Assembly (NCBI GenBank): GCA_903906305.1
Contig: CAIVJR010000005.1
Span: forward strand, 6,485-70,484
Origin: an uncultured bacterium
GTDB taxonomy: Bacteria; Patescibacteriota; Dojkabacteria; SC72
DNA: 64,000 nt
Direction: 5' to 3'
Of this stretch, positions 179 through 47,301 are shown piece after piece. The notes under the pieces were generated by a model, which worked only from the letters and a program-made list of their open reading frames with translations, ran no database searches and was not told where the DNA came from. The stretch's first letter is position 1, and every line of letters starts with the position of its first letter. The translations under genes and the position numbers were made by a program.

Positions 179-205
179 GACCCTCACACGAGGGTCTTTT
201 TATTT
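179..205. terminator. Rho-independent terminator between convergent genes, probably bidirectional
   Basis: Perfect stem agaccctc/gagggtct with a 4-nt loop, then a T-run on the plus strand. It overlaps the stop codon of the minus-strand recombinase. Confidence 0.55.
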
Positions 206-1541
206 ACTTCAACGGATGATTCTTCCTTACTGTTTCCTCTGCAAACTTCTCACTAGCATGTACATACTTAGTAGTAGTATTTAAACTCTCGTGACCTAAC
301 AGAGCTTGTAAAGCCACAGGACTAGCACCTTGCTCAGCTAAATAAGTAGCAAAACCATGTCTGAGACTATGTGCAGAAGTAGGAATCTGAATACCAAGCT
401 TACGCCTGTATTCAGCAATCTTCTCTTGAAAATAGTTTGTAGAAATCCTCATATCTACTTTTCCATACCGACCACCAGAAAAAGGAATGAACAGAGCAGG
501 GGAGTCGAACTTTTCAAGGAACCCACTCTGCCTGTAACTCTCAACCAAAGAAATATATTTCCTATTCCCTTTATCAAATATCTCCAAATTCAATTCATCT
601 CCAGATGTTTCACGCTCGGTATTCACATCAGCCATTAACTTATCCAAAACTCCTGGTTGTTCCTCCGTATCCTTATTCGTAAACGCATACTTAAGCCTTA
701 CACTCAAATACTTATTCAACCAATCCAAACTTCTTTGTGTCAAATATACCGATCTTTCTTTTTTACCCTTACCAATAATATACATCTTACCCTCAACATT
801 AATATTCTCCAAATCCAAATTGATTAATTCGGATATACGCATACCACTAGCAAACAACATCTCCAACATACATCTATTACGTATCGCGACTCTCTCATCA
901 GACTCAAACTCCAATGGAGATTCAATGAGTGCTGTTAGGTCTTGTAATGATGCAACCTTCTTAACACGCTTCTCAGCCTTCATCATATCAACCGCATCTG
1001 CTGGTAATGGAATTTCTAAATCCCATTTAACTCTAAATTTCAAATATGATCTTACCGATGACAACATACGATTAATACTGTTAACATCCAAACCAGATTT
1101 TTTTCGAGCATTGGTATTCATAGGTCTTTCGAATATTCCAAGCGACCCATACACACGGTTGTACAAGCTCTCCAGGAAACTAACCTCAAATACTTCCTTC
1201 TTCACAGGTGTATTCATGGCTCCCATATCAGTATCGTGGCTTAAATCGTCGCTAGCGGCTTTAGCCCCGGATATTGCCTGTATACCGGCATTCTTGACGA
1301 ATTCCTTCCTTATTCTATCCAAATCCTTCAAATGTTCACCAGCTTTTAGGTATCCCTTGTACATGGAAATGTCTTTCTTAGATACATCCTTAAACTCAAC
1401 TCCGCGGAAATTAATAAAGACAGCAAATATACAAAGATCTCTGGCATAGTTATGGATGGTCAGAGGACTGTAATTACTGTTCTGTAGGTCCATCAAGAAG
1501 TCATCTTGATCTGGTAGCTTAGGGAATACTTTGTCTTTCAT
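204..1541 (-). CDS. Tyrosine site-specific recombinase (XerC/XerD or phage-integrase family) with a long N-terminal and central extension
   Basis: The C-terminal catalytic region reads HSLRHGFATYLAEQGASPVALQALLGHESLNTTTKYVH, which carries the H-x-x-R and terminal Y hallmarks. The upstream RISELINLDLENI block resembles the family's box I. Confidence 0.8.
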   Translation of the reverse strand: MKDKVFPKLPDQDDFLMDLQNSNYSPLTIHNYARDLCIFAVFINFRGVEFKDVSKKDISMYKGYLKAGEHLKDLDRIRKEFVKNAGIQAISGAKAASDDLSHDTDMGAMNTPVKKEVFEVSFLESLYNRVYGSLGIFERPMNTNARKKSGLDVNSINRMLSSVRSYLKFRVKWDLEIPLPADAVDMMKAEKRVKKVASLQDLTALIESPLEFESDERVAIRNRCMLEMLFASGMRISELINLDLENINVEGKMYIIGKGKKERSVYLTQRSLDWLNKYLSVRLKYAFTNKDTEEQPGVLDKLMADVNTERETSGDELNLEIFDKGNRKYISLVESYRQSGFLEKFDSPALFIPFSGGRYGKVDMRISTNYFQEKIAEYRRKLGIQIPTSAHSLRHGFATYLAEQGASPVALQALLGHESLNTTTKYVHASEKFAEETVRKNHPLK

Positions 1542-6877: not shown

Positions 6878-9430
6878 TTAAATCTTTACTGTATACTTCT
6901 TTTTCTCTTCCTCTTTCTTAGGCTCAACCTTGGGTTCTTCTTTCTTGACTTCTTCCTTTTTAGGTTCAATCCTGGGTTCTTCTCTTCTTTCAACCGGTTT
7001 ATGTTCTTCGTTATTCAAAGGTACTGACCTATTCCCCTTTTCACTGTATGTTTGATTACTCCATTTTTGGATTTTGTCTTCGATAACTTCCCTATCCATA
7101 CCATATTTCTCTCTCGATTTTTCAATGATCTCTTGTTTACAATCAAATTTCTGATACCTAACTGGTAATGATTTTGCACTAAATGGTATTGATGTCATAC
7201 CATCAATACAAAGCTTTACATACATAGCATGGGAATCTAAAGATACTAAGTCGTCTGAAGAAACCACAGGAGCAAATTCTTTTTCCAATATAGAAGCATC
7301 TGATTGACTCACCACAAATGAACCCAAAGTTCCTACATTACCAAAGATAGCCTGCCTTACTGTTAAAGGTAATTGATCGATGTATTGGTTAGTCATTGTA
7401 AGACTTAAGTGATATTTTCTAGCTTCTGAAAGTATCTTTGCAAAAGAATCTGTCGCAAAATTCTGGAATTCATCAACATACAAGAAGAAATCTTTTCTCT
7501 CTGATTCTGGCATATCGACTCTTTCCATCGCGGTAGCTTGCAATCTTGTAATGATCATTCCTCCTAAGAGTGCAGCAGTTTCCTCTCCTAATCTTCCTTG
7601 TGCAAGATTAACCAAAAGAATCTTTCGGTTATCCATTATCTCTCGCAAATCTATAGTTGATTTAACCTGTCCAATGATATTTCTAGTAACTGCAGAAGAT
7701 ATGAATCTTCCAACTTTGTTTTGAATAGGTGCTACTGCCTCTGCAAGTAATCTCGGATTCTGGGACATCTGAGCAAATTCTTCTGTCCAAAACTTGTAAA
7801 GAATTGGGTCATTTACCTGTTTCAATATGAACTTTCTGTAGCTATTGTCTATTAACATCCTAGTCACTGCTAGCAACGTAGTTCCTTGAGCTTCTAAAGC
7901 GGTAGCTATTGTATTAACAAGAATATATTGAAGTCTTGGTCCCCATGAATCACCAAATTGTTTTTTAAATACTTCTACTACCCCATCAGCTATCAAATCT
8001 CTCTGAGATTTATCCTTAAGTTCTAAAAGATTGAAGCCCACAGGATGGTCTACATCGGTAGGGTTAAAGTAAATTACATCATCTATACGATTGGGCGGAA
8101 TATGATCTAGAAGATCCTCTACAGTGTCTCCGTGAGGGTCTACAAAGCAGGCTCCATCTCCGGCCAATATGTCAGAAATGAACATATTCTTAAAGACTGT
8201 AGATTTACCCACACCGGTTTTACCTAAAAGATAGAAATGGCGTGCACGATCAGCTTTCTTTAAACCAAATTGCACCATAGCTCCTCTGTAGTCTGTTTCT
8301 CCAAAGATAGTTACATCACCGTCCTTTGCAGTTGGCATATTCATAGGTGGTTCAAGCTTTCGAGATCTACTCCATGCAATGTTTGGTGTTTCTACAGAGA
8401 TATTTGGTAAGTGATACAAAGAAGCTAGCTCTTCAATATTTAATATATCTGGTTCATCCGCATCCATATGTCTGATTACATATTCATCATATATTTCCTT
8501 CCCTGTTTTAGTAGGTTTAGAATGTATGAAGTTATTGAGATGTGCAGTAGTAAATTGTTTGAAACTTGCAGTGACATCTCGAAGAATTTGTTCGGATCTT
8601 TCTTGAGTTTCAGCTTTGGTAACCACACGAATCTTAACCTCAAAACCGAGTTTAAGCATTTTAGTTTCAATCTCTTTCAACTCTTCTTCCTGCCCTGGTT
8701 CAAGTTTAACAACCTCTTTTTTTGCAGGACTGGATTCACTTGTAGAAAGAGTATTTCCTAACTTTACCAATCCGCTGACAATTCGACTAAAGATAGTTTC
8801 TCCATTAATATTTTTGCCCTCTTTTATAGCGGTAATATATTTCTTTGAATCTTTTTGCCAAAAGTTTGAAACTGGTCTAATGACTATCTGTAACCATGCT
8901 TTCTCCCCCTTTGAGAGGTCAGACATAGCTCCCGTAATTGCTGCAAGTGGGTCTACTTCAAAATTTCTAAATGTCTTAATTGGGAATATGGAATCTTTCT
9001 CCATTTCAATCTCTCCGCATGTTACAAAGGTATCATCATTTCCGTTAGCTCGTGTGGCATAGTCTTCAACATAGCTAATATCCGCATTTGGATACTGAGC
9101 ATACATCTGTCCTTCTACAAACTTTGCGAGATGTTTTGGCGTAACAATGTAGAAACGAATACCATCGTCATCACTGGAGATAATTTCAAAACTGATAATG
9201 TCCTCCCCCCTTACCAAATCTCCTAGAATTCCATGTACTGAAGCAAACATCTGTTCTGCTGCTAATGCTGATTTGTCGTTTTCTCGAGGAACCAAAACTT
9301 GCAGTACCAAAGGACTTCTAATATCTTCAAAAACTGATTGTTCTACTTTGTTCGCTTTGCTTCCCCAAATCAATATAAAGGCAACAAAGGCCCCAGCAAA
9401 GATTAAAAGTATTAACATGGCTGCAATCAT
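6878..9430 (-). CDS. Membrane-anchored P-loop ATPase of the FtsK/HerA/VirD4 (type IV coupling protein-like) superfamily, with a Lys/Glu-rich repetitive C-terminal tail
   Basis: An N-terminal TM helix is followed by a Walker A (GKTGVGKST) and the downstream motif CFVDPHGD, which is typical of TraG/VirD4/HerA ATPases. The C-terminus carries EPKKEE/VKKEEPKVEPKKEE repeats. Confidence 0.6.
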   Translation of the reverse strand: MIAAMLILLIFAGAFVAFILIWGSKANKVEQSVFEDIRSPLVLQVLVPRENDKSALAAEQMFASVHGILGDLVRGEDIISFEIISSDDDGIRFYIVTPKHLAKFVEGQMYAQYPNADISYVEDYATRANGNDDTFVTCGEIEMEKDSIFPIKTFRNFEVDPLAAITGAMSDLSKGEKAWLQIVIRPVSNFWQKDSKKYITAIKEGKNINGETIFSRIVSGLVKLGNTLSTSESSPAKKEVVKLEPGQEEELKEIETKMLKLGFEVKIRVVTKAETQERSEQILRDVTASFKQFTTAHLNNFIHSKPTKTGKEIYDEYVIRHMDADEPDILNIEELASLYHLPNISVETPNIAWSRSRKLEPPMNMPTAKDGDVTIFGETDYRGAMVQFGLKKADRARHFYLLGKTGVGKSTVFKNMFISDILAGDGACFVDPHGDTVEDLLDHIPPNRIDDVIYFNPTDVDHPVGFNLLELKDKSQRDLIADGVVEVFKKQFGDSWGPRLQYILVNTIATALEAQGTTLLAVTRMLIDNSYRKFILKQVNDPILYKFWTEEFAQMSQNPRLLAEAVAPIQNKVGRFISSAVTRNIIGQVKSTIDLREIMDNRKILLVNLAQGRLGEETAALLGGMIITRLQATAMERVDMPESERKDFFLYVDEFQNFATDSFAKILSEARKYHLSLTMTNQYIDQLPLTVRQAIFGNVGTLGSFVVSQSDASILEKEFAPVVSSDDLVSLDSHAMYVKLCIDGMTSIPFSAKSLPVRYQKFDCKQEIIEKSREKYGMDREVIEDKIQKWSNQTYSEKGNRSVPLNNEEHKPVERREEPRIEPKKEEVKKEEPKVEPKKEEEKKKYTVKI

Positions 9431-13292: not shown

Positions 13293-13376
13293 TGGTCGGG
13301 AAGGGAGTTGAACCCTTATGCTATTGCTAGCACGGGATTTTGAGTCCCGCGTGTCTGCCAGTTCCACCACTCGACC
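13293..13376 (-). tRNA. tRNA-Leu (anticodon CAA), class II with a long variable arm
   Basis: The reverse complement folds as a cloverleaf. Acceptor GGTCGAG, D-stem GTG/CAC, anticodon stem CGGGA/TCCCG with loop CTCAAAA, variable hairpin TGCTA-GCAA-TAGCA, and T-arm AAGGG-TTCAACT-CCCTT. There is one A-C mismatch in the acceptor and no encoded CCA. Confidence 0.8.
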
Positions 13377-31303: not shown

Positions 31304-32815
31304 CTAAGTTATCTCATACATCTTTTCAAGATCTACCGCGCTTTTACCATTCTCTAGCCTATCATCCGCAGTAGCATACATAGTAAACAAAACATCCCCC
31401 TTAGACACAGCCTCACCCGGCATTTTGTGAATATATAGTCCAGCCTCCTTAATACGAGGACAACCCAAAGCCCTAGCAATATTAACAATCTCAACACTAC
31501 TAATCATCTTAACAGTACCATCCTTAGTAGACACAACCTCAGCGCTAAGATTCCCTGCCTTAATCTCACTAGACTTAGTTATCTTCTTTGCACCCTGTGC
31601 AAAACCAATCTCCCAGAACTTCTCATATGCTTTCTTCGAATCCAAAAGTGTTTGAGCAAGTACTTTACCCTCCCCCTCAGTGGAGATACCCGTAGCTTCA
31701 AACAATATACCCGCCATATCTATGACTACTCTTTCCATTTCCAATGATGCACTGCTGTCTCTTTCAAGTATCTTCAAAGCTTCAATGATCTCAAGGTTAG
31801 GACCAATACCCCTACCATCAGGGCCATTAACCTTACGAGTAGTCGTTTCACACTCAATACCAAATTTCTTAAACAGTTTCTTAAATTCCTTAGCCAATTT
31901 GAATACATCCTCAGTAACCTCAACCTTACTACCCTTACCATATGGAAGATCGATTAAAATATTCTCAATACCCAATGCAACCTTCTTAGCTACAATACTC
32001 ACAAGTACCTTTTGATATTCTTGGATACGAAGAGATCTTTCAACATTAATAATTACATCATCTGCAGGAGATATACTCAAAGAACCACCCCAGAACAAAC
32101 AACCACCCGTCTTCTCTACAACCTTCATTATTTCCTCCTCAGTGAGCGATACAGGCATAATAACCTCTAAGATGTCTGATGTGCCAGAGGGAGATGTAAT
32201 TGCTCTAGAAGAGGTATTAGGGACGATCAAACCACCAGCTACAAGTATGGGTACTAATACAGGAGTAACACCCTTTCCCGCAACACCACCAATCGAGTGT
32301 TTGTCTGCAATGACACTACCCTTACCTTTAAATTTTTTAAATGACAATGAATCCCCAGACTGTGCCATACCCTGTGTCATCCAATATATCTCCTCATCAT
32401 TGAAACCTGGATTAAAGAATGTAGAAATGAAGAAAGCGATTTCTGTTTCTCTCAATCTACGAGATGCAATCTCTTTCATAATGAGTTCTAAATCTTCCTT
32501 TGTCAGGTCATGCCCTAAGAGTTTTCTACTTATGGCCTCGAGTGCTTTACTTCGTTCAGGAATATCCACAAATACAGTACTACCTTCCACAATCAGATAC
32601 TCCTTCCAAATCTCTTCAAACAATCCAATTTCACCCTGATGTACTCTCTCCTCTGTTTCTAAAACATTGGCATACAGATCAGCATCCCCTATTCCAAGGT
32701 ATACCAATTCCCCTTCTTTTACTCCAATTTTTTCAGCATCTTTCCTATGTAAAACAACATTAAAGCTATTATCCTCGCCCAAATCCAATATTTTGCTTCT
32801 TAAGTAGAAAGACAT
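31304..32815 (-). CDS. AMP phosphorylase (archaeal-type DeoA-family nucleoside phosphorylase with an N-terminal extension)
   Basis: Thymidine-phosphorylase-family blocks (DKHSIGGVAGKGVTPVLVPILVAGG, SSRAITSPSGTSD) plus an approximately 80-aa N-terminal domain typical of about 500-aa AMP phosphorylases. The gene is adjacent to an e2b2-family isomerase. Confidence 0.75.
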   Translation of the reverse strand: MSFYLRSKILDLGEDNSFNVVLHRKDAEKIGVKEGELVYLGIGDADLYANVLETEERVHQGEIGLFEEIWKEYLIVEGSTVFVDIPERSKALEAISRKLLGHDLTKEDLELIMKEIASRRLRETEIAFFISTFFNPGFNDEEIYWMTQGMAQSGDSLSFKKFKGKGSVIADKHSIGGVAGKGVTPVLVPILVAGGLIVPNTSSRAITSPSGTSDILEVIMPVSLTEEEIMKVVEKTGGCLFWGGSLSISPADDVIINVERSLRIQEYQKVLVSIVAKKVALGIENILIDLPYGKGSKVEVTEDVFKLAKEFKKLFKKFGIECETTTRKVNGPDGRGIGPNLEIIEALKILERDSSASLEMERVVIDMAGILFEATGISTEGEGKVLAQTLLDSKKAYEKFWEIGFAQGAKKITKSSEIKAGNLSAEVVSTKDGTVKMISSVEIVNIARALGCPRIKEAGLYIHKMPGEAVSKGDVLFTMYATADDRLENGKSAVDLEKMYEIT

Positions 32816-32832
32816 AACTAGTTAGTAAAAAA

Positions 32833-33780
32833 TTATCTATCAAATATCCAAGGATATTTCTCCTTGACTACTGCGTCCACTTCAGACGGTTTAACTATAC
32901 CAAATTCTGTCACAAAACCAGTAATTAGGACATTATCCACAATCTCAAATGCCGGATTATATATCTCCAAACCCTTAGGAGCATCTGGCCATATCTCTGA
33001 GTCTTCTCTTACTTCAATTTCAATATTTCCGATGTATGAGCTTTCATCAATTTTAAGCAAAGGCGTAATTATATATACCGGTTTATCTGCATAGTGAGCA
33101 CTCATGGCTATACTCCAGCTTCCTATCTTGTTTATGACATGGCCACCTTTGACGATCTGATCACACCCTATGAATACTGTGTCTACAAGGACATTTCCAC
33201 GACCAATTATGAATGAGTCCGCAGCACTATCTGTAATCATCGTTGTTTTAATTCCTGCATTCACTAAATTCTTTGCAGTAATCCTGCCCTGCATTCTTGG
33301 TCTAGTTTCTGTGCACACTACCTCAAACTCCTTATCCTTATGTGACAATTCTTTGATCAATGTTTCTACCGTTGAAGAGTGACAATGTGTAAAAATATTG
33401 TCGTAGTTTTTGAGGTAATCCTTTGACTTATCCACAATACTCTTCTTAGTTTCGGAAATCATATCAAGGTACTGAGCGCATAGCTCATCAAGCCTTGGTT
33501 TCATAGTGGACACCTCTGGTAAAACAGGGAACTCTTTGTCAAAGAAGTACTTTATGAACCTTACCCCATTTTTAGCTAATGGTTCATTAGGTCTAGCTTT
33601 TGAAAGCTTGTCCCCTACCTGAAAGAATTCATCATGTATCTTTTGTTTGTCTGTTTCTTTGGTTAAGGAGAGATACAATTTCATTCCTTCGAACACTGCA
33701 ATGGCAACATTGGTTGCCCCTTGGATGTTCAACTTTTGTATATCCTCATATATTTTGTCTATCTGTGTGTATACTTCCAT
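32833..33780 (-). CDS. Ribose-1,5-bisphosphate isomerase (eIF-2B alpha/beta/delta-like, e2b2 family)
   Basis: The eIF2B-like fold blocks GATNVAIAVFEG, CHSSTVETLI and TDSAADSFI are present. The gene directly follows the AMP phosphorylase, as in the AMP salvage pathway. Confidence 0.7.
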   Translation of the reverse strand: MEVYTQIDKIYEDIQKLNIQGATNVAIAVFEGMKLYLSLTKETDKQKIHDEFFQVGDKLSKARPNEPLAKNGVRFIKYFFDKEFPVLPEVSTMKPRLDELCAQYLDMISETKKSIVDKSKDYLKNYDNIFTHCHSSTVETLIKELSHKDKEFEVVCTETRPRMQGRITAKNLVNAGIKTTMITDSAADSFIIGRGNVLVDTVFIGCDQIVKGGHVINKIGSWSIAMSAHYADKPVYIITPLLKIDESSYIGNIEIEVREDSEIWPDAPKGLEIYNPAFEIVDNVLITGFVTEFGIVKPSEVDAVVKEKYPWIFDR

Positions 33781-33781
33781 A

Positions 33782-35209
33782 CTACTTTAATTCAAATTCT
33801 TCATTAACATTAGGTACTATCGTTTCGATCTGTGTATCTTTGTAAATTTTGTCTGCAAATTCTTCTGCTACCTGTTCATCACCATGAGTTATGAATATTT
33901 GCTTTGGAGTATGTCCAAAACTTCCTAACCAGTATGACAAATCTCGTTCATCACCATGGGCAGAGAATCCTCCCAGAGTATGTACTTGTGCATTGTTTTC
34001 ATATTCTCTTCCGAATATTCTTACAACTCTCTCACCATCCATAATCTTTCTCCCCAATGTCCCTTGTACCTGATATCCAACAAAGACTACATGGGTTTTA
34101 CTGTTTTCAATATTGTTCTTAAGATGATGCATAATTCTTCCACCTGTACACATTCCACTTCCTGCCATAATGACTATTCCTCGCTTGGATATTAATCGTT
34201 TTGATTCTTCAGCATCCTCAACTATATGCAATCCTGGGAAATCAAATGGATCGTCTCCTTTGTTTAGTAATCGTTTAGCATCCTCATCGTAAAAATCTGG
34301 ATATTGTTTGAATATGGCAGTAGCTTTTGAAGCCATTGGACTGTCTAGATATATTGGCAAACCCGAGAGTAAGCGTTGTTCTACAAAGAGATTAATTTCA
34401 TACAATATCTCCTGAGCTCGTTCAATTGCAAAGGTTGGAATGAGTACAACACCTTCACTCTTTTGTGCTTGTTGTAATATGGCAAGTAATTCTAAAAGTG
34501 TTTCATTTCTGTCTCTGTGTAACCTATTCCCATATGTGGATTCACAAATGACATAGTCTGCTTCGCGGATTAGGTCTGGATCTTTTACAATACGTGCACC
34601 TGGTTGACCTAGGTCTCCAGAGAATACAATTTTTCTAGTTCTCTCTGCCTCATTTTTTACCCAAAACTCTATGCTTGCAGAACCAATGATATGTCCAGCA
34701 TCTCTGAGTCTGAATTCAAAATGATTGTTAATATTTACTGATGTGCTGTATGGATATACCTCAAAGAGTTGAGCCATTGCTTCGACGTCTTCGGTAGTGA
34801 ATAGTGGTTTTCGATTTGTATAGAAGGATTCTTCTTCTACCTCTGCTTCGGTCATTCCTCCTTCTTTTGCCCTTGAGGTCCATCTTTCATAGTCTTCTGC
34901 CTGAATATGTGCAGCATCTAGGAGTACTACCTTAGCTAGATCTCTAGTTGGTTGAGTACATACTATTCTTCCATGGAATCCTTGTTTTACAAGAACTGGT
35001 AATCTTCCACAGTGATCAAAGTGTGCATGGGTTAGGAATACAAAATCTAATGTAGCAGGATCAAAAGGAAAGGCTTCATAGTTCATTGCTTCATTCTCAT
35101 GGGAGCCTTGATATGCTCCACAGTCTACGATGAATTTTAGTTCTCCAGTATCTACGTAATAGCAGGATCCAGTAACGTTTTTAGCAGCTCCACAGAATTT
35201 TAACTTCAT
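33782..35209 (-). CDS. MBL-fold beta-CASP family ribonuclease (RNase J / CPSF-like)
   Basis: HAHFDHCGRLP (HxHxDH) near the N-terminus, downstream beta-CASP-like blocks, and a 475-aa length. Confidence 0.75.
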   Translation of the reverse strand: MKLKFCGAAKNVTGSCYYVDTGELKFIVDCGAYQGSHENEAMNYEAFPFDPATLDFVFLTHAHFDHCGRLPVLVKQGFHGRIVCTQPTRDLAKVVLLDAAHIQAEDYERWTSRAKEGGMTEAEVEEESFYTNRKPLFTTEDVEAMAQLFEVYPYSTSVNINNHFEFRLRDAGHIIGSASIEFWVKNEAERTRKIVFSGDLGQPGARIVKDPDLIREADYVICESTYGNRLHRDRNETLLELLAILQQAQKSEGVVLIPTFAIERAQEILYEINLFVEQRLLSGLPIYLDSPMASKATAIFKQYPDFYDEDAKRLLNKGDDPFDFPGLHIVEDAEESKRLISKRGIVIMAGSGMCTGGRIMHHLKNNIENSKTHVVFVGYQVQGTLGRKIMDGERVVRIFGREYENNAQVHTLGGFSAHGDERDLSYWLGSFGHTPKQIFITHGDEQVAEEFADKIYKDTQIETIVPNVNEEFELK

Positions 35210-35271
35210 TTAGGCAGGTTTAGTTAATTAAGCTATGTATATGATAGAGGAAAAAGGAGTTAATTCCAACC

Positions 35272-35535
35272 CTACTTGAATGACATTACCACAAATCCTA
35301 ATTCATCAATATCTTCCTGACTCCAGAATCTTAAATCCTTAGTTTTCATTACAAAGGTAACTGTTTTTTCCATCTGTCTCCCGGTATATTCCTTGATTTC
35401 AGAATCCCATTCCCTCAATACTAATACATCCCCTACTTCACATTCAAATTCAGCTATTCTTAAATCAAAATTCTTTTCTCCATTGAGTACTTTTTCAAAA
35501 AGATCTGGTACTGTCTTTTTCTCAATCCTTCTCAT
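35272..35535 (-). CDS. Small ASCH/DUF3850-like (PUA-fold) protein
   Basis: 87 aa. The block KNFDLRIAEFECEVGDVLVLREW resembles the ASCH/DUF3850 beta-barrel. Confidence 0.4.
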   Translation of the reverse strand: MRRIEKKTVPDLFEKVLNGEKNFDLRIAEFECEVGDVLVLREWDSEIKEYTGRQMEKTVTFVMKTKDLRFWSQEDIDELGFVVMSFK

Positions 35536-35557
35536 ATATATATTTAGAAAAATTAAT

Positions 35558-36982
35558 TTAAATATTTGCTAATTTCTTAGCATTTTCAATCAATTTCTCC
35601 TTGGTATTGAGCATTGGGTCTTCTAGTACCATGTCTAGTAATTCTTTCAATATTTTTCCTAATTCAGGACCTCTTTCAATACCAATACTTACTAAATCTT
35701 CTCCTGTAATCTTTAAATCTGCCACCTTGAATGCCATATCTTGTTGCAACACGGTAGATATTCTTTGTTGAAGCAATGTAATTTCTTCTGGTTTAAAAGC
35801 AGTCATTGGATTGGATTGAGCATCGGCCAAACGTAGCTTAAACAGGTCATCAATGTTGTCGATTCCTACTCTTTGTATGAATCTTCTAACAGCAGAATCG
35901 GACCATTGGTGTAATTCAATATTGTTCTTCTCCTCTTCAGTCATATCATCTTGCATGTGTGGGTAGTAGAACATATGGTTCTTGATTAACAATATCACTC
36001 GCTTTACTTCTGCTTGTGGGAATTTCATTCTTCTTAATATCTCTTCTACCATCTGTGCACCCATTGCATCATGACCATAGAAATGGCCATTCCCCATATC
36101 TGTCCTTGGTTTTGCGATATCATGTAGCAAGGCTGCGAGTTTTACACTGTCATGTGCAGAGTCGCATGTTCTAAGGCTATGCCAATATACATCATCGCTA
36201 TGGAACATTTTTTGTTCTACACCTAAACCTTCTAGAAGTTCTGGCATGAACAATCGGAGTAATCCGGCCTGTCGCATTAAATCTATGCCTACAGATGGCT
36301 TAGAAGACTTTAAAAGGGTCTTCATGAATTCATCTCGGATACGTTCCATGGATACTTGAGCTGCCACTGGCACGCACTCAACTATGGCTTTGAATGTTTC
36401 TTCGTCAATCTCAAAACCAATCTGGGAAGCTAGTCTGCATGCTTTAAAAGCACGAAGTCCATCTTCTTTAAATCTTTCTAATGGTGTGCCAACTGCACGT
36501 ATTTTCTTCAATTCGATATCCTTAATACCATCATATGGATCGTATACCTCCACCTCTATCTCTTCTTTACTTCCTTCTAGATCAAGACTTCCTAGGTCTA
36601 TTGCCATTGCATTAATGGTGAAATCTCTCCTACCCAAATCCTTATCTATCTCCTTTACAAATTCAATATTTGTAGGCCATCGTCCATCAATGTAGTCGGA
36701 TTCACTTCTAAATGTTGTAACTTCTACTTCCATTGTTTCTCCATGACTGTCTTGGACCAATGCCATAACGGTACCGAATTTAGCACCAACAGATACTGAT
36801 TTAGGAAATATATTTAGCATTTCATCAGGTAATGCATCTGTAGCAAGATCGTAATCATGAGGGTCTAATCCCATGACAACATCTCGTACAGCACCTCCAA
36901 CAAGGTAGCATTCAAAGCCCTCTTTACTGAGCATTCTACTTACTTTTTGTACATATTCTGGAATTTGTATTCTTACTTTCAT
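35558..36982 (-). CDS. cca: CCA-adding tRNA nucleotidyltransferase with an HD domain
   Basis: Pol-beta-type head YLVGGAVRDVVMG...DYDLAT and an HD phosphohydrolase block (HSLRTCDSAHD...LAALLHDIAKP). Confidence 0.85.
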   Translation of the reverse strand: MKVRIQIPEYVQKVSRMLSKEGFECYLVGGAVRDVVMGLDPHDYDLATDALPDEMLNIFPKSVSVGAKFGTVMALVQDSHGETMEVEVTTFRSESDYIDGRWPTNIEFVKEIDKDLGRRDFTINAMAIDLGSLDLEGSKEEIEVEVYDPYDGIKDIELKKIRAVGTPLERFKEDGLRAFKACRLASQIGFEIDEETFKAIVECVPVAAQVSMERIRDEFMKTLLKSSKPSVGIDLMRQAGLLRLFMPELLEGLGVEQKMFHSDDVYWHSLRTCDSAHDSVKLAALLHDIAKPRTDMGNGHFYGHDAMGAQMVEEILRRMKFPQAEVKRVILLIKNHMFYYPHMQDDMTEEEKNNIELHQWSDSAVRRFIQRVGIDNIDDLFKLRLADAQSNPMTAFKPEEITLLQQRISTVLQQDMAFKVADLKITGEDLVSIGIERGPELGKILKELLDMVLEDPMLNTKEKLIENAKKLANI

Positions 36983-41190: not shown

Positions 41191-41327
41191 AGCTTTGTTA
41201 TATGTATATTCTTATGGAATTCACAATGATACTAATTACTAAGGATATTTACAAATATCCCGTATGTATATAAAAAACAAAACCGAGCGTTTCCGCTCGG
41301 TTATGATACTAACAATTTGCAAAAGAA

Positions 41328-42011
41328 TTATTCAGTTATTGCTTCTTTAACTTCTTTAGCTTTCTTTACTACCTTCTTTGCTGTTTTCTTAACTTCCTTA
41401 ACTACTTCAGCAACTTCTTTTTCGATAGCTTTCTTAGTAGCTTTAACCTCTTTAATAGGTTCAAGAATACTAATAATCTTGTCTAATTTCTTGTTTAAAG
41501 CTTCAATATCAGCTTTTAGATTTCCACAATCACAGCTAGAGTTTCTGTTTCCACCTCTATCATTGCTCTTGTTTCCTTCTTTACCTTCGAAACATTTACT
41601 ACAATAGATTGGTTTGTTGCTAGATGGTTTGAATGGAACCTGACATGTTTGTCCACATTCATCACATACTGCTTCAAACATTTCTTTCTCTTCTCTGTCT
41701 CTGAATCCACCTCTATCAAAGCTTGGTCTTCTCTCCCTGCTTTCAAATCTTCCACCTCTGTCATCTCTTCCACCGTCTTCTCTCTTTGTTTCAAAACATT
41801 CACTACAGTAAATTGGTTTGTCTCCAGATGGTCTGAATGGGACTCTACAGTCCTTTCCACATTGATCACATACTGCATCAAACATTTCTGGTCTATCTCC
41901 TCTTCCACCACCACCAAAGCTTCTACCTCCACCACCAAAACTTCTACCACCTCCACCGAAGCTTCTACCACCACCTCTGCTACTTCCACCTGATCTATTA
42001 AAGTCTCTCAT
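41328..42011 (-). CDS. RGG/Gly-Arg-rich protein with two tandem CxxC-x(~17)-CxxC zinc-ribbon modules and a Lys/Glu-rich helical C-terminus
   Basis: N-terminal (GGGGRSF) x3 repeats. Two near-identical modules read CD(Q/E)CG(K/Q)(D/T)C(R/Q)VPF(R/K)PS..KPIYCS(E/K)CFE. The C-terminus is KKA/KEV-rich. Confidence 0.65.
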   Translation of the reverse strand: MRDFNRSGGSSRGGGRSFGGGGRSFGGGGRSFGGGGRGDRPEMFDAVCDQCGKDCRVPFRPSGDKPIYCSECFETKREDGGRDDRGGRFESRERRPSFDRGGFRDREEKEMFEAVCDECGQTCQVPFKPSSNKPIYCSKCFEGKEGNKSNDRGGNRNSSCDCGNLKADIEALNKKLDKIISILEPIKEVKATKKAIEKEVAEVVKEVKKTAKKVVKKAKEVKEAITE

Positions 42012-42104
42012 TGTATATATTTTTCTTTTAATTTTAATACGGACAGTAGTGAGTATATTCTAAAATGATTAGAATAACAAGGATGGGATATATATGGGGT
42101 ATGG

Positions 42105-42160
42105 TTGTTAAAAGAAAAACGACACCCGTGTTTGTTTGCACGGAGTGCCGTTTGTTCTTT
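42105..42160 (-). terminator. Hairpin terminator downstream of the 135-aa paralog (first copy of a repeated element)
   Basis: An imperfect hairpin is flanked by an A-run on the left and a T-run on the right. It is about 80% identical to the element at 42803-42850. Confidence 0.5.
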
Positions 42161-42172
42161 TTATTCAGTTGC

Positions 42173-42580
42173 TTATTGCAGGGAGATATTTCCAGTTCTC
42201 CATAAATCGAGGATCGATTGTTTTACTTCTTCAGTATTCGCCAACAACAAAATATGTTTGGTAAATTTTGAACTTGGATCTTTACCGGATAGAACAAGAG
42301 AAAAGCCTGTAATCTCTTTTAATGCATCGACTAACTCTGAGGAAGCTTTTGATCTCGAATGGAGAGCACAGAAGCCTGCCTCTTGATGCATGGATAGATA
42401 GAAGACGCTATTCCCTATTGTTCCATTCCAATCTTTGTTTTCGTTTTTAAGTACAAGTTTTCCATACCAAGTATCCCATCCTTTTCTTACAGGAATACCT
42501 TTTTCTTGAAGTTTTTCTACTACTTGATCCCAAGTTAGATACATGATTTTCTCCTTTACGCTTGATACTGGCTTTACCAT
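42173..42580 (-). CDS. Small protein of unknown function, paralog family member A (135 aa)
   Basis: Its N-terminal motif IMYLTWDQVVEKLQEKGIPV is shared with the 165-aa and 102-aa neighbours. Confidence 0.5.
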   Translation of the reverse strand: MVKPVSSVKEKIMYLTWDQVVEKLQEKGIPVRKGWDTWYGKLVLKNENKDWNGTIGNSVFYLSMHQEAGFCALHSRSKASSELVDALKEITGFSLVLSGKDPSSKFTKHILLLANTEEVKQSILDLWRTGNISLQ

Positions 42581-42682
42581 GATTTCATCTCCTATTTTTT
42601 GATATCCACAAGTGGATAAAATTTTAAGTGTAATAGTTTCTTACACCCCAAATAATATCCACATGTACATATATCGCAACTG

Positions 42683-42750
42683 TTAAAGAACAAACAAGAT
42701 TGAAAATGTGTAATACACATATATTTATATAATCCTGCTATGACAATGAT
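42683..42750. promoter_or_regulatory. Conserved upstream region with the perfect palindrome ATGTGTA-A-TACACAT between TTGAAA and TATAAT-like hexamers (copy 1)
   Basis: An approximately 70-bp segment about 88% identical to 43831-43900. It lies roughly 100-170 bp upstream of the 135-aa gene start and contains a 7-1-7 palindrome at about 42706-42720. Confidence 0.5.
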
Positions 42751-42802
42751 TATATCTAAAATAGTAGCAGAAATCCACACTATGGGGTTTCTACAGTATT
42801 GT

Positions 42803-42850
42803 TTGTTAAAAGAAAAACGGCATCCCATGTTTTTGCACGGAATGCCGTAG
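42803..42850 (-). terminator. Hairpin terminator downstream of the 165-aa paralog (second copy of the repeated element)
   Basis: Stem acggcat..atgccgt with an internal stem. On the minus strand it is followed by a U-run. Confidence 0.55.
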
Positions 42851-42872
42851 TCCTTTAAAAAAGTTGTGATTG

Positions 42873-43370
42873 TTATACCATGAATTCTTCCACTCCCTTG
42901 AAATGGTCTTTTAACCATTCTATTCTGCCAGCACAATATTGACATCCCCATTCATAAGTTAAAGTACGTAATTGCTTAACAAGGTACTTTAAGTTGGGCT
43001 TAGGAAGCGGTAATTGCTTTCGAGTATTTTGGAGATGCTTCATTGCGGTATCGATTGCAGGGATCATATTCCTAAATGAGGGGAATCTTGTAAGATTGAC
43101 TTCCTCAAATTCGGAAATTAATGATACAAGCCGCTCAATAGCAGCCTTCTTTCGCTTACTTCTTGGGGCCGTAATCATAAGCATAGCGCTGCCATCGTAC
43201 GACAGGAGAAAGCAATAGTTTAATCTTTCGATCCGCCCCATTCCTGAAGAATTTCTCGCCAGGTAATCGTCCCTACGACGTACGGTAAAAACAATACCTT
43301 CTGCTTTCAATCTTTGCTGGATCTCAAGCCAATGTATCTGTTTCCGATCTACAAACTTTATTTCTTCCAT
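42873..43370 (-). CDS. Small protein of unknown function, paralog family member B (165 aa)
   Basis: Its N-terminal motif QIHWLEIQQRLKAEGIVF is shared with the family. It has a basic central region. Confidence 0.5.
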   Translation of the reverse strand: MEEIKFVDRKQIHWLEIQQRLKAEGIVFTVRRRDDYLARNSSGMGRIERLNYCFLLSYDGSAMLMITAPRSKRKKAAIERLVSLISEFEEVNLTRFPSFRNMIPAIDTAMKHLQNTRKQLPLPKPNLKYLVKQLRTLTYEWGCQYCAGRIEWLKDHFKGVEEFMV

Positions 43371-43424
43371 CCTAGCCTCCTTCCGTATCCTATTAGCTCA
43401 ATACTTTTAATTCCGTTACATCCA

Positions 43425-43733
43425 TCATTCCTTTGAGAACCTCCAATCTTGCAGCTTTTTGTTTTCATAGATTACAAATGGATTACTTTTCAACATAGTT
43501 TCAGCTACTGCCTGAACGAATGGATCTCCAACGGGAGAATTGGGATTCGAAAGTTCCTTAATTACTAAGGTACACGTCGAGGTTCCATCCAACCAACAAA
43601 GTGTAAACCGATTTCCATCCAAATATCCACTTACTGTGGTTTCTGGATTTACATCAGTTATTACCTGCATCCCTAGAGATACAAGCTTTTTACGCACTTC
43701 TTCCCACTTGACTTGCGACATCTTTTTGAACAT
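43425..43733 (-). CDS. Small protein of unknown function, paralog family member C (102 aa)
   Basis: Its N-terminal motif SQVKWEEVRKKLVSLGMQVI is shared with the family. Confidence 0.5.
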   Translation of the reverse strand: MFKKMSQVKWEEVRKKLVSLGMQVITDVNPETTVSGYLDGNRFTLCWLDGTSTCTLVIKELSNPNSPVGDPFVQAVAETMLKSNPFVIYENKKLQDWRFSKE

Positions 43734-43830
43734 TGTCTTCCCCTTCCTTTCGTTATGATGGATAAAATTTTATCTGTAAAAATTTCTTACAGTACAAAAT
43801 AATATCCACATAACTTTTTCTCACAACTTT

Positions 43831-43900
43831 TTAAAGAACAAACAAGATTGAAAATATGTATATACATATATTTATATATCCTGTATAGACAAGGATTATA
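43831..43900. promoter_or_regulatory. Conserved upstream region with the palindrome ATATGTA-TA-TACATAT (copy 2)
   Basis: Near-identical to 42683-42750. It sits about 100-170 bp upstream of the 102-aa gene start. Confidence 0.5.
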
Positions 43901-43943
43901 TCTCAATGTATGTAGAAAATCTATATTATAGGTTTATACTCCC

Positions 43944-44351
43944 CTACTTCTGTGTTACCACCAAATACAAAGCAACAACATAACACAATGTTATGACAAT
44001 GAATGCAGCTAACATCCCATACTGTAATGCAGGATTCATAGATCCTTGGGGATATACTATCTGGAATACCAATCTAGTTAACCAAAGGGTACATGTAGCT
44101 CCAAGTAATACCATCATAGAGTATTTGTTTACCTTACCACTGTATATTAGAAGTATATTCATTACTCCAAACAATACCAATGAGAGTGAAAAGAATACAT
44201 TGATAGCTCTAACAGCTACGATTAATTCTGTAGCCTGAGTATCGATATATGAATACCATTTCCATAGCTTTGGTACAAAAAAATGCCATATACCAAAACC
44301 AATAGATACACTACTACCAATTGTTACCAATATTTTTGTTATTAAATCCAT
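43944..44351 (-). CDS. Small membrane protein (4 TM)
   Basis: 135 aa, hydrophobic throughout. Confidence 0.4.
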   Translation of the reverse strand: MDLITKILVTIGSSVSIGFGIWHFFVPKLWKWYSYIDTQATELIVAVRAINVFFSLSLVLFGVMNILLIYSGKVNKYSMMVLLGATCTLWLTRLVFQIVYPQGSMNPALQYGMLAAFIVITLCYVVALYLVVTQK

Positions 44352-44355
44352 CTGA

Positions 44356-44787
44356 CTATTTTACAGGTAATATCTGATATTCGAAGGTATATCCACCACT
44401 CTTAGCTACTCCCTCTACCTTACTTCTAATATCTTTGTAATCAAAGGTATATTCATATTTCTTACCAAATAGATCAGATTGTTCTTGTATATTACCCTCT
44501 CTACCACCGTTCATAGTGTTGTATGTTTCTGTTTTAAAACCAAATCCAGTAGACATACCATCATCATATCCTCCTGATGTAAATCCACTTCCTGCTTCCA
44601 TTAACATTTCAGAAAATTTTACAACCTTAGTATCTTCCTCTATTCTCATCTTAAATGAATATGTTAATTTCTTTGTAGAAAGGAATGCTTTTCTTTCTGC
44701 TATTGTTGATTTAAATTCATAGAGGCCTTTCTTTTCAGACCACTCTCCACTGTAGCTGTCTAGAGATTTTTTAATATCGTCGATCAT
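44356..44787 (-). CDS. Hypothetical soluble protein
   Basis: 143-aa ORF, 4 bp from the upstream gene. Confidence 0.4.
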   Translation of the reverse strand: MIDDIKKSLDSYSGEWSEKKGLYEFKSTIAERKAFLSTKKLTYSFKMRIEEDTKVVKFSEMLMEAGSGFTSGGYDDGMSTGFGFKTETYNTMNGGREGNIQEQSDLFGKKYEYTFDYKDIRSKVEGVAKSGGYTFEYQILPVK

Positions 44788-44805
44788 ATTAAATAGATTA
44801 ATAAT

Positions 44806-45552
44806 TTATTTTACTAAAACTTTTTTGTTCTCCTTCACACCCTTAATCAAAAGCCATAGCGTAAGAGAAACCTCTGCAACGAAACCAATAGCCATACATA
44901 CTATTGAAACTGTTCCCAAACTTGGGAAAAGAAATTTTTGGCAAACATATATCATGAGGGCAACACCATCTACCGCTAAAATTATGCCTAAAGCTTTAGG
45001 AAGGAAACCCGATTTGAATACTAGATACCCTAGAGGGAATAGCCAGAGTCCAAATGGAACTTGAGCTGCAACCGCCCCTATTCTACGCAGATCAATGAAT
45101 AGCATGGCCTGTGCCTGTAACTGATCAGGTGTAAAGACTTTAAGATAGTCTACCCCACTCAAAAACATTTGCCCCGCAAACAGACTTAACAAGCTAAAAT
45201 TCCATATTGCAAAACCTGCAAAGTTTAAAAGTAAAAATAGCAATGCTAAGTTCTTGTTAACAGGTTTTAGTAGTACATACAAAGCCCAAGCTGCGAAAAG
45301 AAAAATTGCAGCTGAGAATAGACTAATTACAAAACCAATGCGGAATGAAGAATCATTGGTCATTATGTTATTGACAGTTTCAAAGGCATCTGAGAATACA
45401 AATTTCCCAAATATATCTGCAACTATGGATGTCACTACGTACAGCAAATATAGCCCTCCTGCTATTCTTGCAATTTTGTTAATCGGACTCATTTTTCTCT
45501 CCTTTATTAAATTATTTAGTTTGCTCTGTTCCATAAATCCCAAACAAATCAT
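44806..45552 (-). CDS. Polytopic membrane protein
   Basis: 248 aa with 6-7 predicted TM helices. Confidence 0.4.
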   Translation of the reverse strand: MICLGFMEQSKLNNLIKERKMSPINKIARIAGGLYLLYVVTSIVADIFGKFVFSDAFETVNNIMTNDSSFRIGFVISLFSAAIFLFAAWALYVLLKPVNKNLALLFLLLNFAGFAIWNFSLLSLFAGQMFLSGVDYLKVFTPDQLQAQAMLFIDLRRIGAVAAQVPFGLWLFPLGYLVFKSGFLPKALGIILAVDGVALMIYVCQKFLFPSLGTVSIVCMAIGFVAEVSLTLWLLIKGVKENKKVLVK

Positions 45553-46174
45553 ATGGTTTCTCTTGGAATCTGTTATTCATAAAGTAGCCTAAAACAAAGA
45601 TAAGCACAATGAAAACGAACAATATAAATGATTGAACTTTAGATATCTTTTGAATATCTTGTTTTGACTTAACTTCACAAACTTCACCAGGACAGTATTG
45701 TGCCTTCTCCTTAAAAAAGAGCGGATAAAATTTACAACCTAAACAAATTCCAAAGACTGATTCAAAGAAGAGGAATATGAGACAAGTAAGACAAGTAATG
45801 CTCGCAATTGGGCTATATGCATTTATGATAATGAAATGGACAAACATTGTGCTTACTAATACTACACCAATTACCCAAGCAAACTTCTTCTGAGCCGCTC
45901 CTACATATTCAGGGGTTTGGTTTCTGACAACCCATCGTCCAAAGATTAGGAATGGTGAGTATTTGGGATTTATGAAAACCCTTATAACAAAATCTACAAG
46001 AAAAAGAGTTATGACATACTTAAGTGGCACAAAGTTCTCCTGAAACAGGATAAACATCCATGATATGAAGGCAGCCAAGAACATTATTCCTGCGGCGGCT
46101 CGTATTTCTCGTTCATTTAGAACTCGAATGTTGTAACCTTCTACATCTTCACCGAATTGAAATATTTTTTTCAT
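45512..46174 (-). CDS. DUF4395-like membrane protein with a C-terminal Cys cluster
   Basis: TM helices plus the block FGICLGCKFYP followed by CPGEVCE. Confidence 0.4.
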   Translation of the reverse strand: MKKIFQFGEDVEGYNIRVLNEREIRAAAGIMFLAAFISWMFILFQENFVPLKYVITLFLVDFVIRVFINPKYSPFLIFGRWVVRNQTPEYVGAAQKKFAWVIGVVLVSTMFVHFIIINAYSPIASITCLTCLIFLFFESVFGICLGCKFYPLFFKEKAQYCPGEVCEVKSKQDIQKISKVQSFILFVFIVLIFVLGYFMNNRFQEKPYDLFGIYGTEQTK

Positions 46175-46722
46175 TTTGAAGTAGTTATAGATTTATTAAA
46201 TCCCTTTATCATTAACCATCCTGCAAGGAATAGTTCATTGGTTATGATGAGAACCATTAGTACATCTAATATTGGTGAGGTTATTCCTACCAATTTTGCT
46301 ACATTGTTTATCAACAACATCCCACATGCTACTAGACCCCATATAGATATGAAGCGTGGTACGAGTTTAGTTTTGAATAACAGGATATAGAACAGGAATG
46401 CACTTATGATAAAGACATAGGTTTGTGGGTAGTTATATATCCAACTTCTCCAATCTGTAGATAAATTACTTAAAAGAAGTATTCCAGCTGCAATCATCAA
46501 TGCTCCTTCTAAAACCTTCATTGCTATATATCCAATGGTAAGTCCTTTGTTTGAAGTTTTAAAGAAAGGGAATAATAATATTGTGATGCCAATTACTGCT
46601 AATCCACTGATTACATCTAGAAGTGTTGTTACCCATTTTATATCTGTAACTCCGCTAGCAAGCATGCTGTATGCTACTAGGATTAGGATTCCTACAATTA
46701 TTGCCTTTGTTCTATTACTCAT
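46171..46722 (-). CDS. Polytopic membrane protein
   Basis: 183 aa with five hydrophobic helices. It overlaps the downstream gene by 4 bp. Confidence 0.4.
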   Translation of the reverse strand: MSNRTKAIIVGILILVAYSMLASGVTDIKWVTTLLDVISGLAVIGITILLFPFFKTSNKGLTIGYIAMKVLEGALMIAAGILLLSNLSTDWRSWIYNYPQTYVFIISAFLFYILLFKTKLVPRFISIWGLVACGMLLINNVAKLVGITSPILDVLMVLIITNELFLAGWLMIKGFNKSITTSK

Positions 46723-46791
46723 ACCTTTTTAAATAATATTATTTGTCTAATATTGCCAAAGAAAAGTATGGGAGTCAATAAAGGTAAAAAA

Positions 46792-47232
46792 CTATTGTTT
46801 GATATATTTCAATATTTTCTCCAATACACCATCTAGGTTCTCCCATGAAAGTATCTTTAATCCTTCTTCTATACCCATCCATAATATCTCCATACCAGAA
46901 TCTGATTCTGCATTGGTTAATACTCTTTCTATCTTCTTCGCACTCTTTAGTATAGCTAGGAAATAGTGGTCTGTTTTATGTACATCCTTATTCCAAGATA
47001 ATATGTAATCATTTATACCTACTGGTTCTATTATCTGTATATCACAATATCCTGTTTCTTCTGATGTTTCTCTCTTAGCTGCTTCTTCTAATGTTTCCTT
47101 TCCTTCTACATGTCCCTTAGGTAATACATATTTCTCTTCACCTTGTAATTTGGTTCTATGTATTACTAAGAGCTCATATCTATCATTATTCTTTCTTAAG
47201 AGATAACAGCCTGCAGATGTGTGTTCTTCCAT
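46792..47232 (-). CDS. NUDIX hydrolase
   Basis: Nudix box GHVEGKETLEEAAKRETSEETG (Gx5Ex7REUxEExGU). Confidence 0.8.
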   Translation of the reverse strand: MEEHTSAGCYLLRKNNDRYELLVIHRTKLQGEEKYVLPKGHVEGKETLEEAAKRETSEETGYCDIQIIEPVGINDYILSWNKDVHKTDHYFLAILKSAKKIERVLTNAESDSGMEILWMGIEEGLKILSWENLDGVLEKILKYIKQ

Positions 47233-47301
47233 ATGATTAATTATATTCCCTTTGTTATATATTTGCGATATATTTAAGTAATAAGATTATAAAATATATC
47301 T

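Follow-up and report, generated by a model that had tools for sequence, protein, structure and literature searches.

A two-finger CxxC-x17-CxxC domain protein of Dojkabacteria as a candidate multivalent RNA binder in a large Patescibacteria family

What does a small basic protein do in a bacterium when it joins glycine- and arginine-rich repeats to two cysteine modules and a charged tail? The question is raised by a gene at 41328..42011 on the minus strand of a 64,000-nt stretch of DNA (hereafter the window) from an uncultured bacterium of the Dojkabacteria (assembly GCA_903906305.1, contig CAIVJR010000005.1, positions 6,485 to 70,484). The list of open reading frames (ORFs) confirmed a 227-aa frame with an ATG start and a stop codon at 41328-41330, and the encoded protein is basic (25 kDa, pI 9.0). 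The sequence-only reading of the locus had described a eukaryote-like RGG-box protein with two tandem zinc ribbons, a combination thought to be uncommon in bacteria, and had suggested RNA or DNA binding. Both the protein and its family turned out to be catalogued already, the identical protein sequence being present in NCBI, JGI/IMG and ENA as a "CxxC-x17-CxxC domain-containing protein". From the domain family, the anatomy of the protein and the genes that recur beside its relatives, we propose with moderate confidence that the protein is a multivalent, zinc-dependent binder or chaperone of RNA with a part in RNA remodelling or in the biogenesis of ribosomes.

The cysteine modules and their domain family

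The coding sequence encodes a CxxC-x17-CxxC domain protein by the ORF list, Pfam and NCBIfam alike. Pfam PF23477 (zf_Tbcl_2) matches two stretches of it (E = 2.1e-33, 114.1 bits against a cut-off of 27), as does NCBIfam TIGR04272 (E = 1.8e-33, 114 bits against a cut-off of 36), and a word-indexed search with a ceiling of 8,000 scored candidates gave more than 1,255 homologues; the frame is therefore a real gene and not a chance one, and its modules belong to the CxxC-x17-CxxC domain family, within which the protein falls in the two-finger subfamily of Patescibacteria. Module 1 (aa 41-76, 41784..41891, minus strand; Pfam stretch 42-77) and module 2 (aa 108-143, 41583..41690, minus strand; NCBIfam stretch 109-143) both have the exact spacing of the family, C48-x2-C51-x17-C69-x2-C72 in the first and C116-x2-C119-x17-C137-x2-C140 in the second. 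All eight of these ligand cysteines are invariant in an alignment of 74 homologues; the signature G-x2-C, VPF-x-P, K-P-[IV]-[YF]-C and C-F is kept in both modules, and each has a conserved fifth cysteine (C55 and C123). The Gly/Arg-rich repeats, the two Cys4 modules and the charged tail of the sequence-only reading were all borne out by the ORF, by repeat finding and by composition, and its module pattern was correct except that PS-x2-KP stands in place of PS-x3-KP. It had also called the modules nearly identical. A duplication is indeed visible in the DNA as a 100-nt direct repeat with 81% identity and 204 nt spacing, but residues 43-75 and 111-143 have only 23 of 33 positions in common (70%).

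AlphaFold2, run with the 74-homologue alignment, modelled the fingers at a pLDDT of 83-89 for module 1 and 82-86 for module 2. The first has strands at residues 44-47 and 54-57 and a helix that begins at residue 70; in the second the strands are at 112-115 and 122-125 and the helix begins at residue 138. An isolated module modelled alone had the same secondary elements (pLDDT 85.5). In these models a beta-hairpin knuckle carries the first CxxC and a helix begins at the second. The predicted topology of both modules is therefore a treble clef, and Pfam describes PF23477 as a "probable treble clef zinc finger". The zinc ribbon was rejected on the same ground: the second CxxC starts a helix in both modelled modules and not a second beta-hairpin knuckle. 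Searches of solved structures gave no relative. A profile search with the 74 sequences found no significant match among PDB chains (best E = 0.17, to the zinc knuckle in the mobile lid of adenylate kinase, followed by a LIM protein), and Foldseek against PDB with the full model and the isolated module returned nothing below E = 1.6, the top non-significant matches being assorted small Cys4 fingers (PHD, CW, PerR/Fur, Trx2, MCM).

The invariance of the ligand cysteines makes zinc binding by the protein probable. Two purified small CxxC-x17-CxxC proteins of Methanosarcina mazei, A00184 and A01980, were found to bind zinc by ICP-MS (PMC12704099). They carry the homologous domain with the same cysteine spacing and the same VPF-x-P and C-x-x-C-F signature, but they are single-domain proteins, whereas the Dojkabacteria protein has two modules together with a Gly/Arg-rich N-terminus, an amphipathic helix and a Lys-rich tail. 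Multi-module members related to these archaeal proteins lack the third cysteine, which the modules studied here have. The sequence-only reading had held that its interpretation would fall if the module were a known, widespread domain with an established function. The domain is indeed a known and widespread one (PF23477/TIGR04272); as for function, only the archaeal zinc binding is on record (PMC12704099).

Disordered basic regions, helix and distribution of the family

The N-terminal region (aa 1-40, 41892..42011, minus strand) is Gly/Arg-rich, predicted to be disordered (pLDDT <50) and basic, with a net charge of +6 (G18, R8, S6, F4). Residues 13-37 read GGGRSF-GGGGRSF-GGGGRSF-GGGGRGD and are encoded by a 21-nt tandem repeat at 41901..41975 on the minus strand (3.6 copies with 85% matches in Tandem Repeats Finder; direct-repeat family D2). 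The number of GGGGRSF units varies between close orthologues that are 89-96% identical, as is expected from slippage of the 21-nt repeat, and the region keeps its composition among orthologues while its sequence and length vary. The description as a eukaryote-like RGG box did not hold. Under the formal definitions, scanned by regular expression, two or more RGG or RG units are separated by spacers of 0-4 residues; the scan found no tri-RGG, di-RGG, tri-RG or di-RG motif in the protein. RGG occurs singly at residues 12, 85, 100 and 152, and the GGGGRSF repeat provides GGR units 4 residues apart. Among 282 retrieved family members a di-RGG motif is present in 37 and a di-RG motif in 98. The resemblance is compositional only, nothing points to a eukaryotic ancestry, and "Gly/Arg-rich basic region" is the accurate label. 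The repeat uses mainly GGT for Gly, which gives the mRNA runs such as GGTGGTGGTGGT, and its G-dinucleotide tracts could in principle yield weak G-quadruplexes; one study has tied RGG coding sequences to G-quadruplex autoregulation (PMC11789052).

The fingers are joined by an Arg/Asp/Gly-rich linker (aa 77-107, 41691..41783, minus strand; R10, G6, D5, E4), likewise predicted to be disordered (pLDDT <50), in which R85, R92 and R100 are nearly invariant in the alignment. A polar Gly/Asn/Ser spacer (aa 144-162, 41526..41582, minus strand) follows finger 2. It contains an extra Cys-x-Cys pair (CDC, CNCDC) at aa 160-162 (41526-41534, minus strand), kept only in close relatives; such a pair between finger 2 and the helix is also present in homologues P0005, P0007, P0015 and P0016. 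The conserved amphipathic helix comes next (aa 163-184, 41460..41525, minus strand; L..LN.KLDKI..IL) and was modelled over residues 162-190 at a pLDDT of 71-84. K175 does not vary in the alignment and D177 and L183 hardly vary, and a strict regular expression for the motif matched 140 of the 282 members. Read from the sequence, the hydrophobic residues L165, I169, L172, L176, I179 and L183 are spaced 4-3-4-3-4, which would fit a short coiled coil or an amphipathic surface helix, and the helix is a candidate oligomerisation element. The C-terminal tail (aa 185-227, 41331..41459, minus strand; net charge +6) had been called Lys/Glu/Ala-rich and helical: its composition agrees (K14, E8, V8, A6, so Val belongs in the description), and a helix is predicted there at low confidence. 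AlphaFold2 (mean pLDDT 60.8) placed disorder at residues 1-38, 80-107 and 148-160 and gave domains without a fixed mutual arrangement (pTM 0.24).

The same plan runs through the family. The median N-terminus of the 282 members has 33 aa, a net charge of +5 and 48% Gly plus Arg; the median linker has 29 aa and a charge of +3; the median C-terminal region has 85 aa, a charge of +11 and 25% Lys; and the median pI is 9.5. Across these members the composition of the disordered parts is conserved and their sequence and length are free to vary. Exactly two modules are present in 270 of the 282, and the others carry three to five on Arg/Gly/Ser-rich linkers.

Such proteins are far from uncommon in bacteria, contrary to the initial impression. 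In a search of 1.84 billion representative proteins, clustered at 50% identity, a profile built on the module (35 residues) matched 6,920 clusters with E ≤ 1e-3, of which 3,787 reached E ≤ 1e-10; proteins of 124-339 aa with two to five modules make up the best 150 matches. The 120 listed homologues of the whole protein had 135-287 aa and two modules each, and those named came from Dojkabacteria/WS6, Falkowbacteria, Gracilibacteria and the "Patescibacteria group". When one genome of each GTDB species was scanned for a single narrow peptide pattern, at least 597 species genomes, nearly all of Patescibacteria, encoded a relative; one Melioribacteraceae chromosome and one Ignavibacteriales contig also did. 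The full architecture, Gly/Arg N-terminus, two fingers, amphipathic helix and Lys-rich tail, recurs in hundreds of Patescibacteria species and is typical of that group, and the gene is kept in very small genomes such as a 655-kb Saccharibacteria chromosome. No fusion to a domain that would reveal the function was seen in the best 150 of the 6,920 profile matches or in 85 related loci, which had only arrays of one to five modules. An origin from mobile elements was rejected, as phage and plasmid collections gave only rare single-module matches.

Two occurrences outside the candidate phyla radiation may be mentioned. The 4.55-Mb Melioribacteraceae (Ignavibacteriota) chromosome encodes a 186-aa member with the full architecture (locus L050, 5926-6486, plus strand), and a convergent cold-shock gene lies 0.7 kb from it (7164-7376, minus strand). 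In an Oscillospiraceae genome (Pusillibacter faecalis pMM59_01; locus L086, 3842-4120, plus strand) a 92-aa protein has a different N-terminal CxxC...CxxC finger and one C-terminal CxxC-x17-CxxC module, which has thus been recruited into another architecture; its gene is directly downstream of a sigma-70-family gene.

Gene neighbourhood and candidate functions

We compared the neighbourhood of the gene in 85 related loci with flanks of up to 6 kb per side. ORFs were called, the three genes on each side were clustered, and recurrent families were then located by HMM or phmmer; Pfam confirmed the cold-shock, DEAD-box, EngB-type GTPase and GIY-YIG representatives. Cold-shock-domain genes were the most frequent neighbours, with 16 of 17 within about 1.1 kb of the family gene. 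This zone makes up 27% of the flanking sequence, which gives a binomial p of 8.8e-9 against an internal control and a ∼44-fold higher density. The 16 cold-shock loci fall into 11 of the 47 clusters formed by the family proteins at 60% identity and into at least seven arrangements, including that of the Melioribacteraceae chromosome, and the cold-shock gene is found on the same strand, either upstream or downstream, or is downstream and convergent. EngB/YihA was immediately adjacent in all six loci that have it (p = 4e-4), BipA/TypA was within 1 kb in five of six, and HflX was directly upstream in three of three, all of one lineage. DEAD-box helicase genes were present in 11 loci, in six of them within 0.9 kb. 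Some loci combine these genes: the order is DEAD-box, family gene, cold-shock in L017 and L026; family gene, cold-shock, DEAD-box in L038 and L055; and RNase J-like, DEAD-box, cold-shock, family gene in L049. In model bacteria the CspA-family proteins and DeaD remodel RNA in the cold, and the large ribosomal subunit is where DeaD, BipA, EngB and HflX act. The linkage of the family to cold-shock, DEAD-box and GTPase genes is absent from the literature searched and is new here. A conserved operon was rejected: the adjoining genes differ between loci, and the associations are statistical only.

RNase J-like genes occur within 3 kb of the family gene in loci L049, L078 and L080. In the window itself, genes for an RNase J-like beta-CASP ribonuclease and a CCA-adding enzyme (33782-36982, minus strand) lie 4-7 kb downstream. 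This proximity is a weak additional link to RNA metabolism.

Nucleic-acid binding, as first suggested, is the most reasonable function to be drawn from the anatomy. Small zinc modules with aromatic residues, Arg-rich disordered linkers, basic low-complexity flanks and a helix that may self-associate make up the design of a multivalent nucleic-acid binder or chaperone of low specificity, and it is the neighbourhood evidence that favours RNA as the ligand and RNA remodelling or ribosome biogenesis as the process. In the mechanism that we propose, each finger would bind one Zn2+, and the fingers with their conserved aromatics (VPF, P-[IV]-[YF]-C, CF) would act together with the basic disordered segments in multivalent binding of single-stranded or structured RNA with low sequence specificity. 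Self-association through the amphipathic helix may increase the valency. The protein would then serve as an RNA chaperone or RNA-remodelling cofactor with cold-shock-domain proteins, DEAD-box helicases and large-subunit-associated GTPases as partners, probably in ribosome biogenesis or RNA turnover. The RNA ligand, the chaperone action and the oligomerisation are each deduced, and are proposed rather than observed properties.

Several known proteins offer analogies. HIV-1 NCp7, a nucleic-acid chaperone, joins two CCHC zinc knuckles by a basic linker and has basic flanks as well. The Dojkabacteria protein resembles such retroviral nucleocapsid proteins in its two minimal aromatic-bearing zinc modules, short basic linker and disordered basic flanks; there is no homology, however, its Cys4 treble-clef-like fingers of ∼33 aa differ from the 14-aa CCHC knuckles, and it is much longer, with a helix and a tail. 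The plant proteins AtCSP/GRP2 and WCSP1 unite a cold-shock domain, Gly-rich segments and zinc knuckles in one polypeptide, and a comparable set may be seen where a gene for a Gly/Arg-rich zinc-finger protein stands beside a cold-shock gene (16 of the 85 loci), sometimes with a DEAD-box gene. Here, in contrast, the genes are separate and not fused, the finger is of another type, and the 64-kb window has no cold-shock gene. The cold-shock RNA remodelling of bacteria by CspA and DeaD/CsdA is a further system to which the set may be likened. The eukaryotic FET proteins (FUS/EWS/TAF15: RGG, RanBP2-type Cys4 finger, RGG) share the layout of Gly/Arg-rich disordered segments flanking Cys4 fingers, but there is no sequence or fold match, no formal RGG/RG motif, and neither an RRM nor a prion-like domain in the protein, whose family is phyletically bacterial and archaeal. 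By analogy, it would work most like the nucleocapsid-type or plant glycine-rich zinc-knuckle RNA chaperones.

A number of points weigh against this proposal. The literature searched holds no functional study of the domain beyond the M. mazei zinc report and no binding or chaperone assay on any member, and the null searches of solved structures leave structure uninformative on the ligand. The formal RGG box is absent, and the Lys/Ala-rich tails of some members resemble the DNA-binding tails of histone H1-like proteins. The 85 loci were picked by similarity (80 best matches) and not at random, and at least one RNA or ribosome gene is nearby in 28 of them (19 of 47 clusters), about one third. ABC-transporter genes, taken as a neutral "control", themselves reached p = 0.017, which leaves only the cold-shock and EngB signals trustworthy. 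Co-occurrence with ribosomal or RNA-processing genes, which the sequence-only reading had named as a check, appears at the level of the family (cold-shock in 16 of 85 loci, EngB adjacent in 6 of 6) and is absent from the 64-kb window, which contains no cold-shock, DEAD-box, EngB, BipA, HflX or GreA gene; the immediate neighbours there are a DedA/VTT membrane protein gene and small ORFs without a Pfam match.

The main rival is a nucleoid-associated DNA-binding protein whose fingers and basic tails coat or bridge the chromosomal DNA, which we regard as unlikely but worth keeping in mind. AKK/PKK-repeat C-terminal tails, typical of H1-like DNA binders, are present in homologues P0048, P0123 and P0127, and the Lys/Ala-rich repetitive tails of several members are like those of nucleoid proteins such as Chlamydia Hc1, the C-terminus of mycobacterial HupB and Pseudomonas AlgP. 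The median C-terminal charge of +11 would suit such a role, the gene is apparently monocistronic and found in variable contexts like many nucleoid-protein genes, and cold-shock-domain proteins also bind single-stranded DNA. The tail of the present protein, however, is a charge-mixed Lys/Glu/Val/Ala sequence (K14, E8) and not of the AKK type, and its folded part is unrelated to those nucleoid proteins. The recurrent neighbours are RNA and ribosome factors (cold-shock, DEAD-box, EngB, BipA, HflX) and not replication or nucleoid genes, and Gly/Arg-rich segments with arrays of fingers strung on basic linkers are a more usual feature of RNA-binding proteins.

Another rival is a protein stably bound to the ribosome instead of a free chaperone: a ribosomal protein specific to the lineage, or a factor for hibernation or assembly that stays on the large subunit. 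The adjacency of genes for EngB, BipA, HflX and DeaD-type DEAD-box helicases, all linked to the large subunit in model bacteria, speaks for it. Ribosomal proteins also often are small, basic zinc proteins of the Cys4 type, and the family persists in minimal genomes. We nevertheless judge this reading to be quite doubtful: the protein shows no sequence or structural similarity to ribosomal chains in PDB, with only non-significant Foldseek matches (E >3), the gene was in no ribosomal-protein operon at any locus examined, and a variation of two to five modules with freely variable disordered lengths is unusual for a stoichiometric ribosomal protein. One Foldseek title, the M. acetivorans ribosome with SriA and SriB, referred to the archaeal Sri hibernation factors; these are CBS-domain proteins and unrelated.

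A transcription factor or RNA-polymerase-binding zinc-finger protein is improbable. One M. mazei paralogue carries the label of an RNA polymerase subunit, from which the authors of that study suggest a role in transcription (PMC12704099); GreA is adjacent in three to four of the 85 loci, and the single-module Firmicute protein follows a sigma-70-family gene. The GreA adjacency is rare, however, the RNA polymerase annotation is a database label, the similarity to RpoP is non-significant (Foldseek E = 7), and the Dojkabacteria protein is mostly disordered and of low complexity, without a sequence-specific DNA-binding domain. A zinc buffer or store, or a thiol redox sensor in which nucleic acids have no role, is highly improbable: 12 cysteines in 227 residues with a fifth conserved one in each module, and the Zn(Cys)4 redox and metal sensors PerR, Fur and Trx2 among the non-significant top Foldseek matches, speak for it, but it leaves the compositionally conserved, strongly basic disordered segments unexplained, the neighbourhood indicates RNA, and metal-homeostasis genes were not recurrent near the gene in the 85 loci.

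Transcription unit, surrounding window and meaning of the family

The gene ends 26 nt before an intrinsic-terminator-like hairpin with a T-run (41281..41302, minus strand; 9-bp stem with 6 G-C pairs, tail TTGTTTTTTA), and a terminator-like hairpin of the upstream gene is located at 42125..42144 on the minus strand. The two hairpins, before and after the gene, suggest a monocistronic unit. A consensus scan gave a sigma-70-like promoter candidate, TTGTTA-17-TATACT, at 42052..42080 (minus strand), ∼40 nt upstream of the ATG; promoter-type matches in the region equal the count expected from shuffles, and this candidate is a pattern match only. In other genomes the gene is flanked by unrelated genes, the downstream neighbour often being convergent.

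Long spurious ORFs had been reported in other frames on both strands, and three are present: a 157-aa frame at 41516..41989 (minus strand) and two on the plus strand, at 41317..41607 and 41649..41993. None of the three in the ORF list is a gene. The coding strand is 67% purine and uses very few codons (AGA for 21 of 22 Arg residues, only GGT or GGA for Gly, only TGT for Cys), and this bias depletes stops in the alternative frames, which explains the shadow ORFs. Three of the five alternative frames have 1.8-3.5 stops per 100 codons; in neighbouring genes the shifted same-strand frames have 6.4-13.7 and the opposite-strand frames 1.0-6.9, mostly >2.5.

The window is part of a bacterial chromosome, has a G+C content of 35.7% and encodes DnaB, a class I release factor, YchF, CysRS, RNase HII, DnaX and RuvB. 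An AMP-phosphorylase-like gene (Glycos_transf_3 + PYNP_C) adjoins an IF-2B-family gene (ribose-1,5-bisphosphate isomerase-like) at 31304-33780 on the minus strand, a nucleotide-salvage pair typical of candidate-phyla-radiation bacteria and archaea. The two nearest species representatives, L006 and L007, encode the protein at 67-69% identity and share the downstream DedA and GT2 genes with the window, L006 also the CCA-adding enzyme gene.

Upstream, the interval from the gene to a tRNA-Ser gene (42173-52067, the tRNA at 51979-52067) looks like a variable island. It contains five small ORFs without a Pfam match and genes for DUF4386 (two copies), DUF4395, NUDIX, DUF3800, GNAT, DUF5677 and DUF6602 proteins; its G+C content is not distinctive, and a paralogy check of the small ORFs just upstream of the gene (42173-44787) found no significant mutual similarity. 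A NUDIX gene is directly upstream of the family gene in L007, by which ∼4.8 kb (42.1-46.8 kb) appears to be extra in the window. A DUF3800-IX RNA (Rfam RF02968, 58 bits, E = 5.5e-10) at 49080-49151 on the minus strand slightly overlaps the DUF3800 protein gene (48452-49090, plus strand), which is the known pairing of this RNA motif. At the other end of the window, a tyrosine recombinase gene of the phage-integrase family (204-1541, minus strand) and a gene for a TrwB-like type IV coupling protein (6878-9430, minus strand) lie within 13 kb of a tRNA-Leu gene (13293-13376, minus strand), which may reflect an integrated mobile element.

As an annotation the protein is unremarkable; its use is as an entry point to a large uncharacterised family, one of the sizeable, conserved and functionally blank protein families of the candidate phyla radiation, kept in genomes down to ∼0.65 Mb. 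The recurrent linkage to cold-shock, DEAD-box and large-subunit GTPase genes gives a concrete, testable hypothesis for its function. A bolder version, which we consider rather unlikely, makes the protein a Patescibacteria-wide core RNA chaperone or large-subunit assembly cofactor that has cold-shock proteins, EngB or BipA and a DEAD-box helicase as physical partners, and whose Gly/Arg- and Lys-rich disordered regions and self-associating helix might organise RNA-protein assemblies; if this were true, it would be the functional counterpart in bacteria of nucleocapsid or FET-type proteins and would supply a part of ribosome biogenesis that is missing from the picture of reduced genomes. The more general proposal of a multivalent RNA-binding or chaperone protein, if confirmed, would extend the much reduced RNA metabolism of the candidate phyla radiation by a lineage-typical RNA chaperone and would provide the first function for the CxxC-x17-CxxC domain, including the abundant small proteins of archaea.

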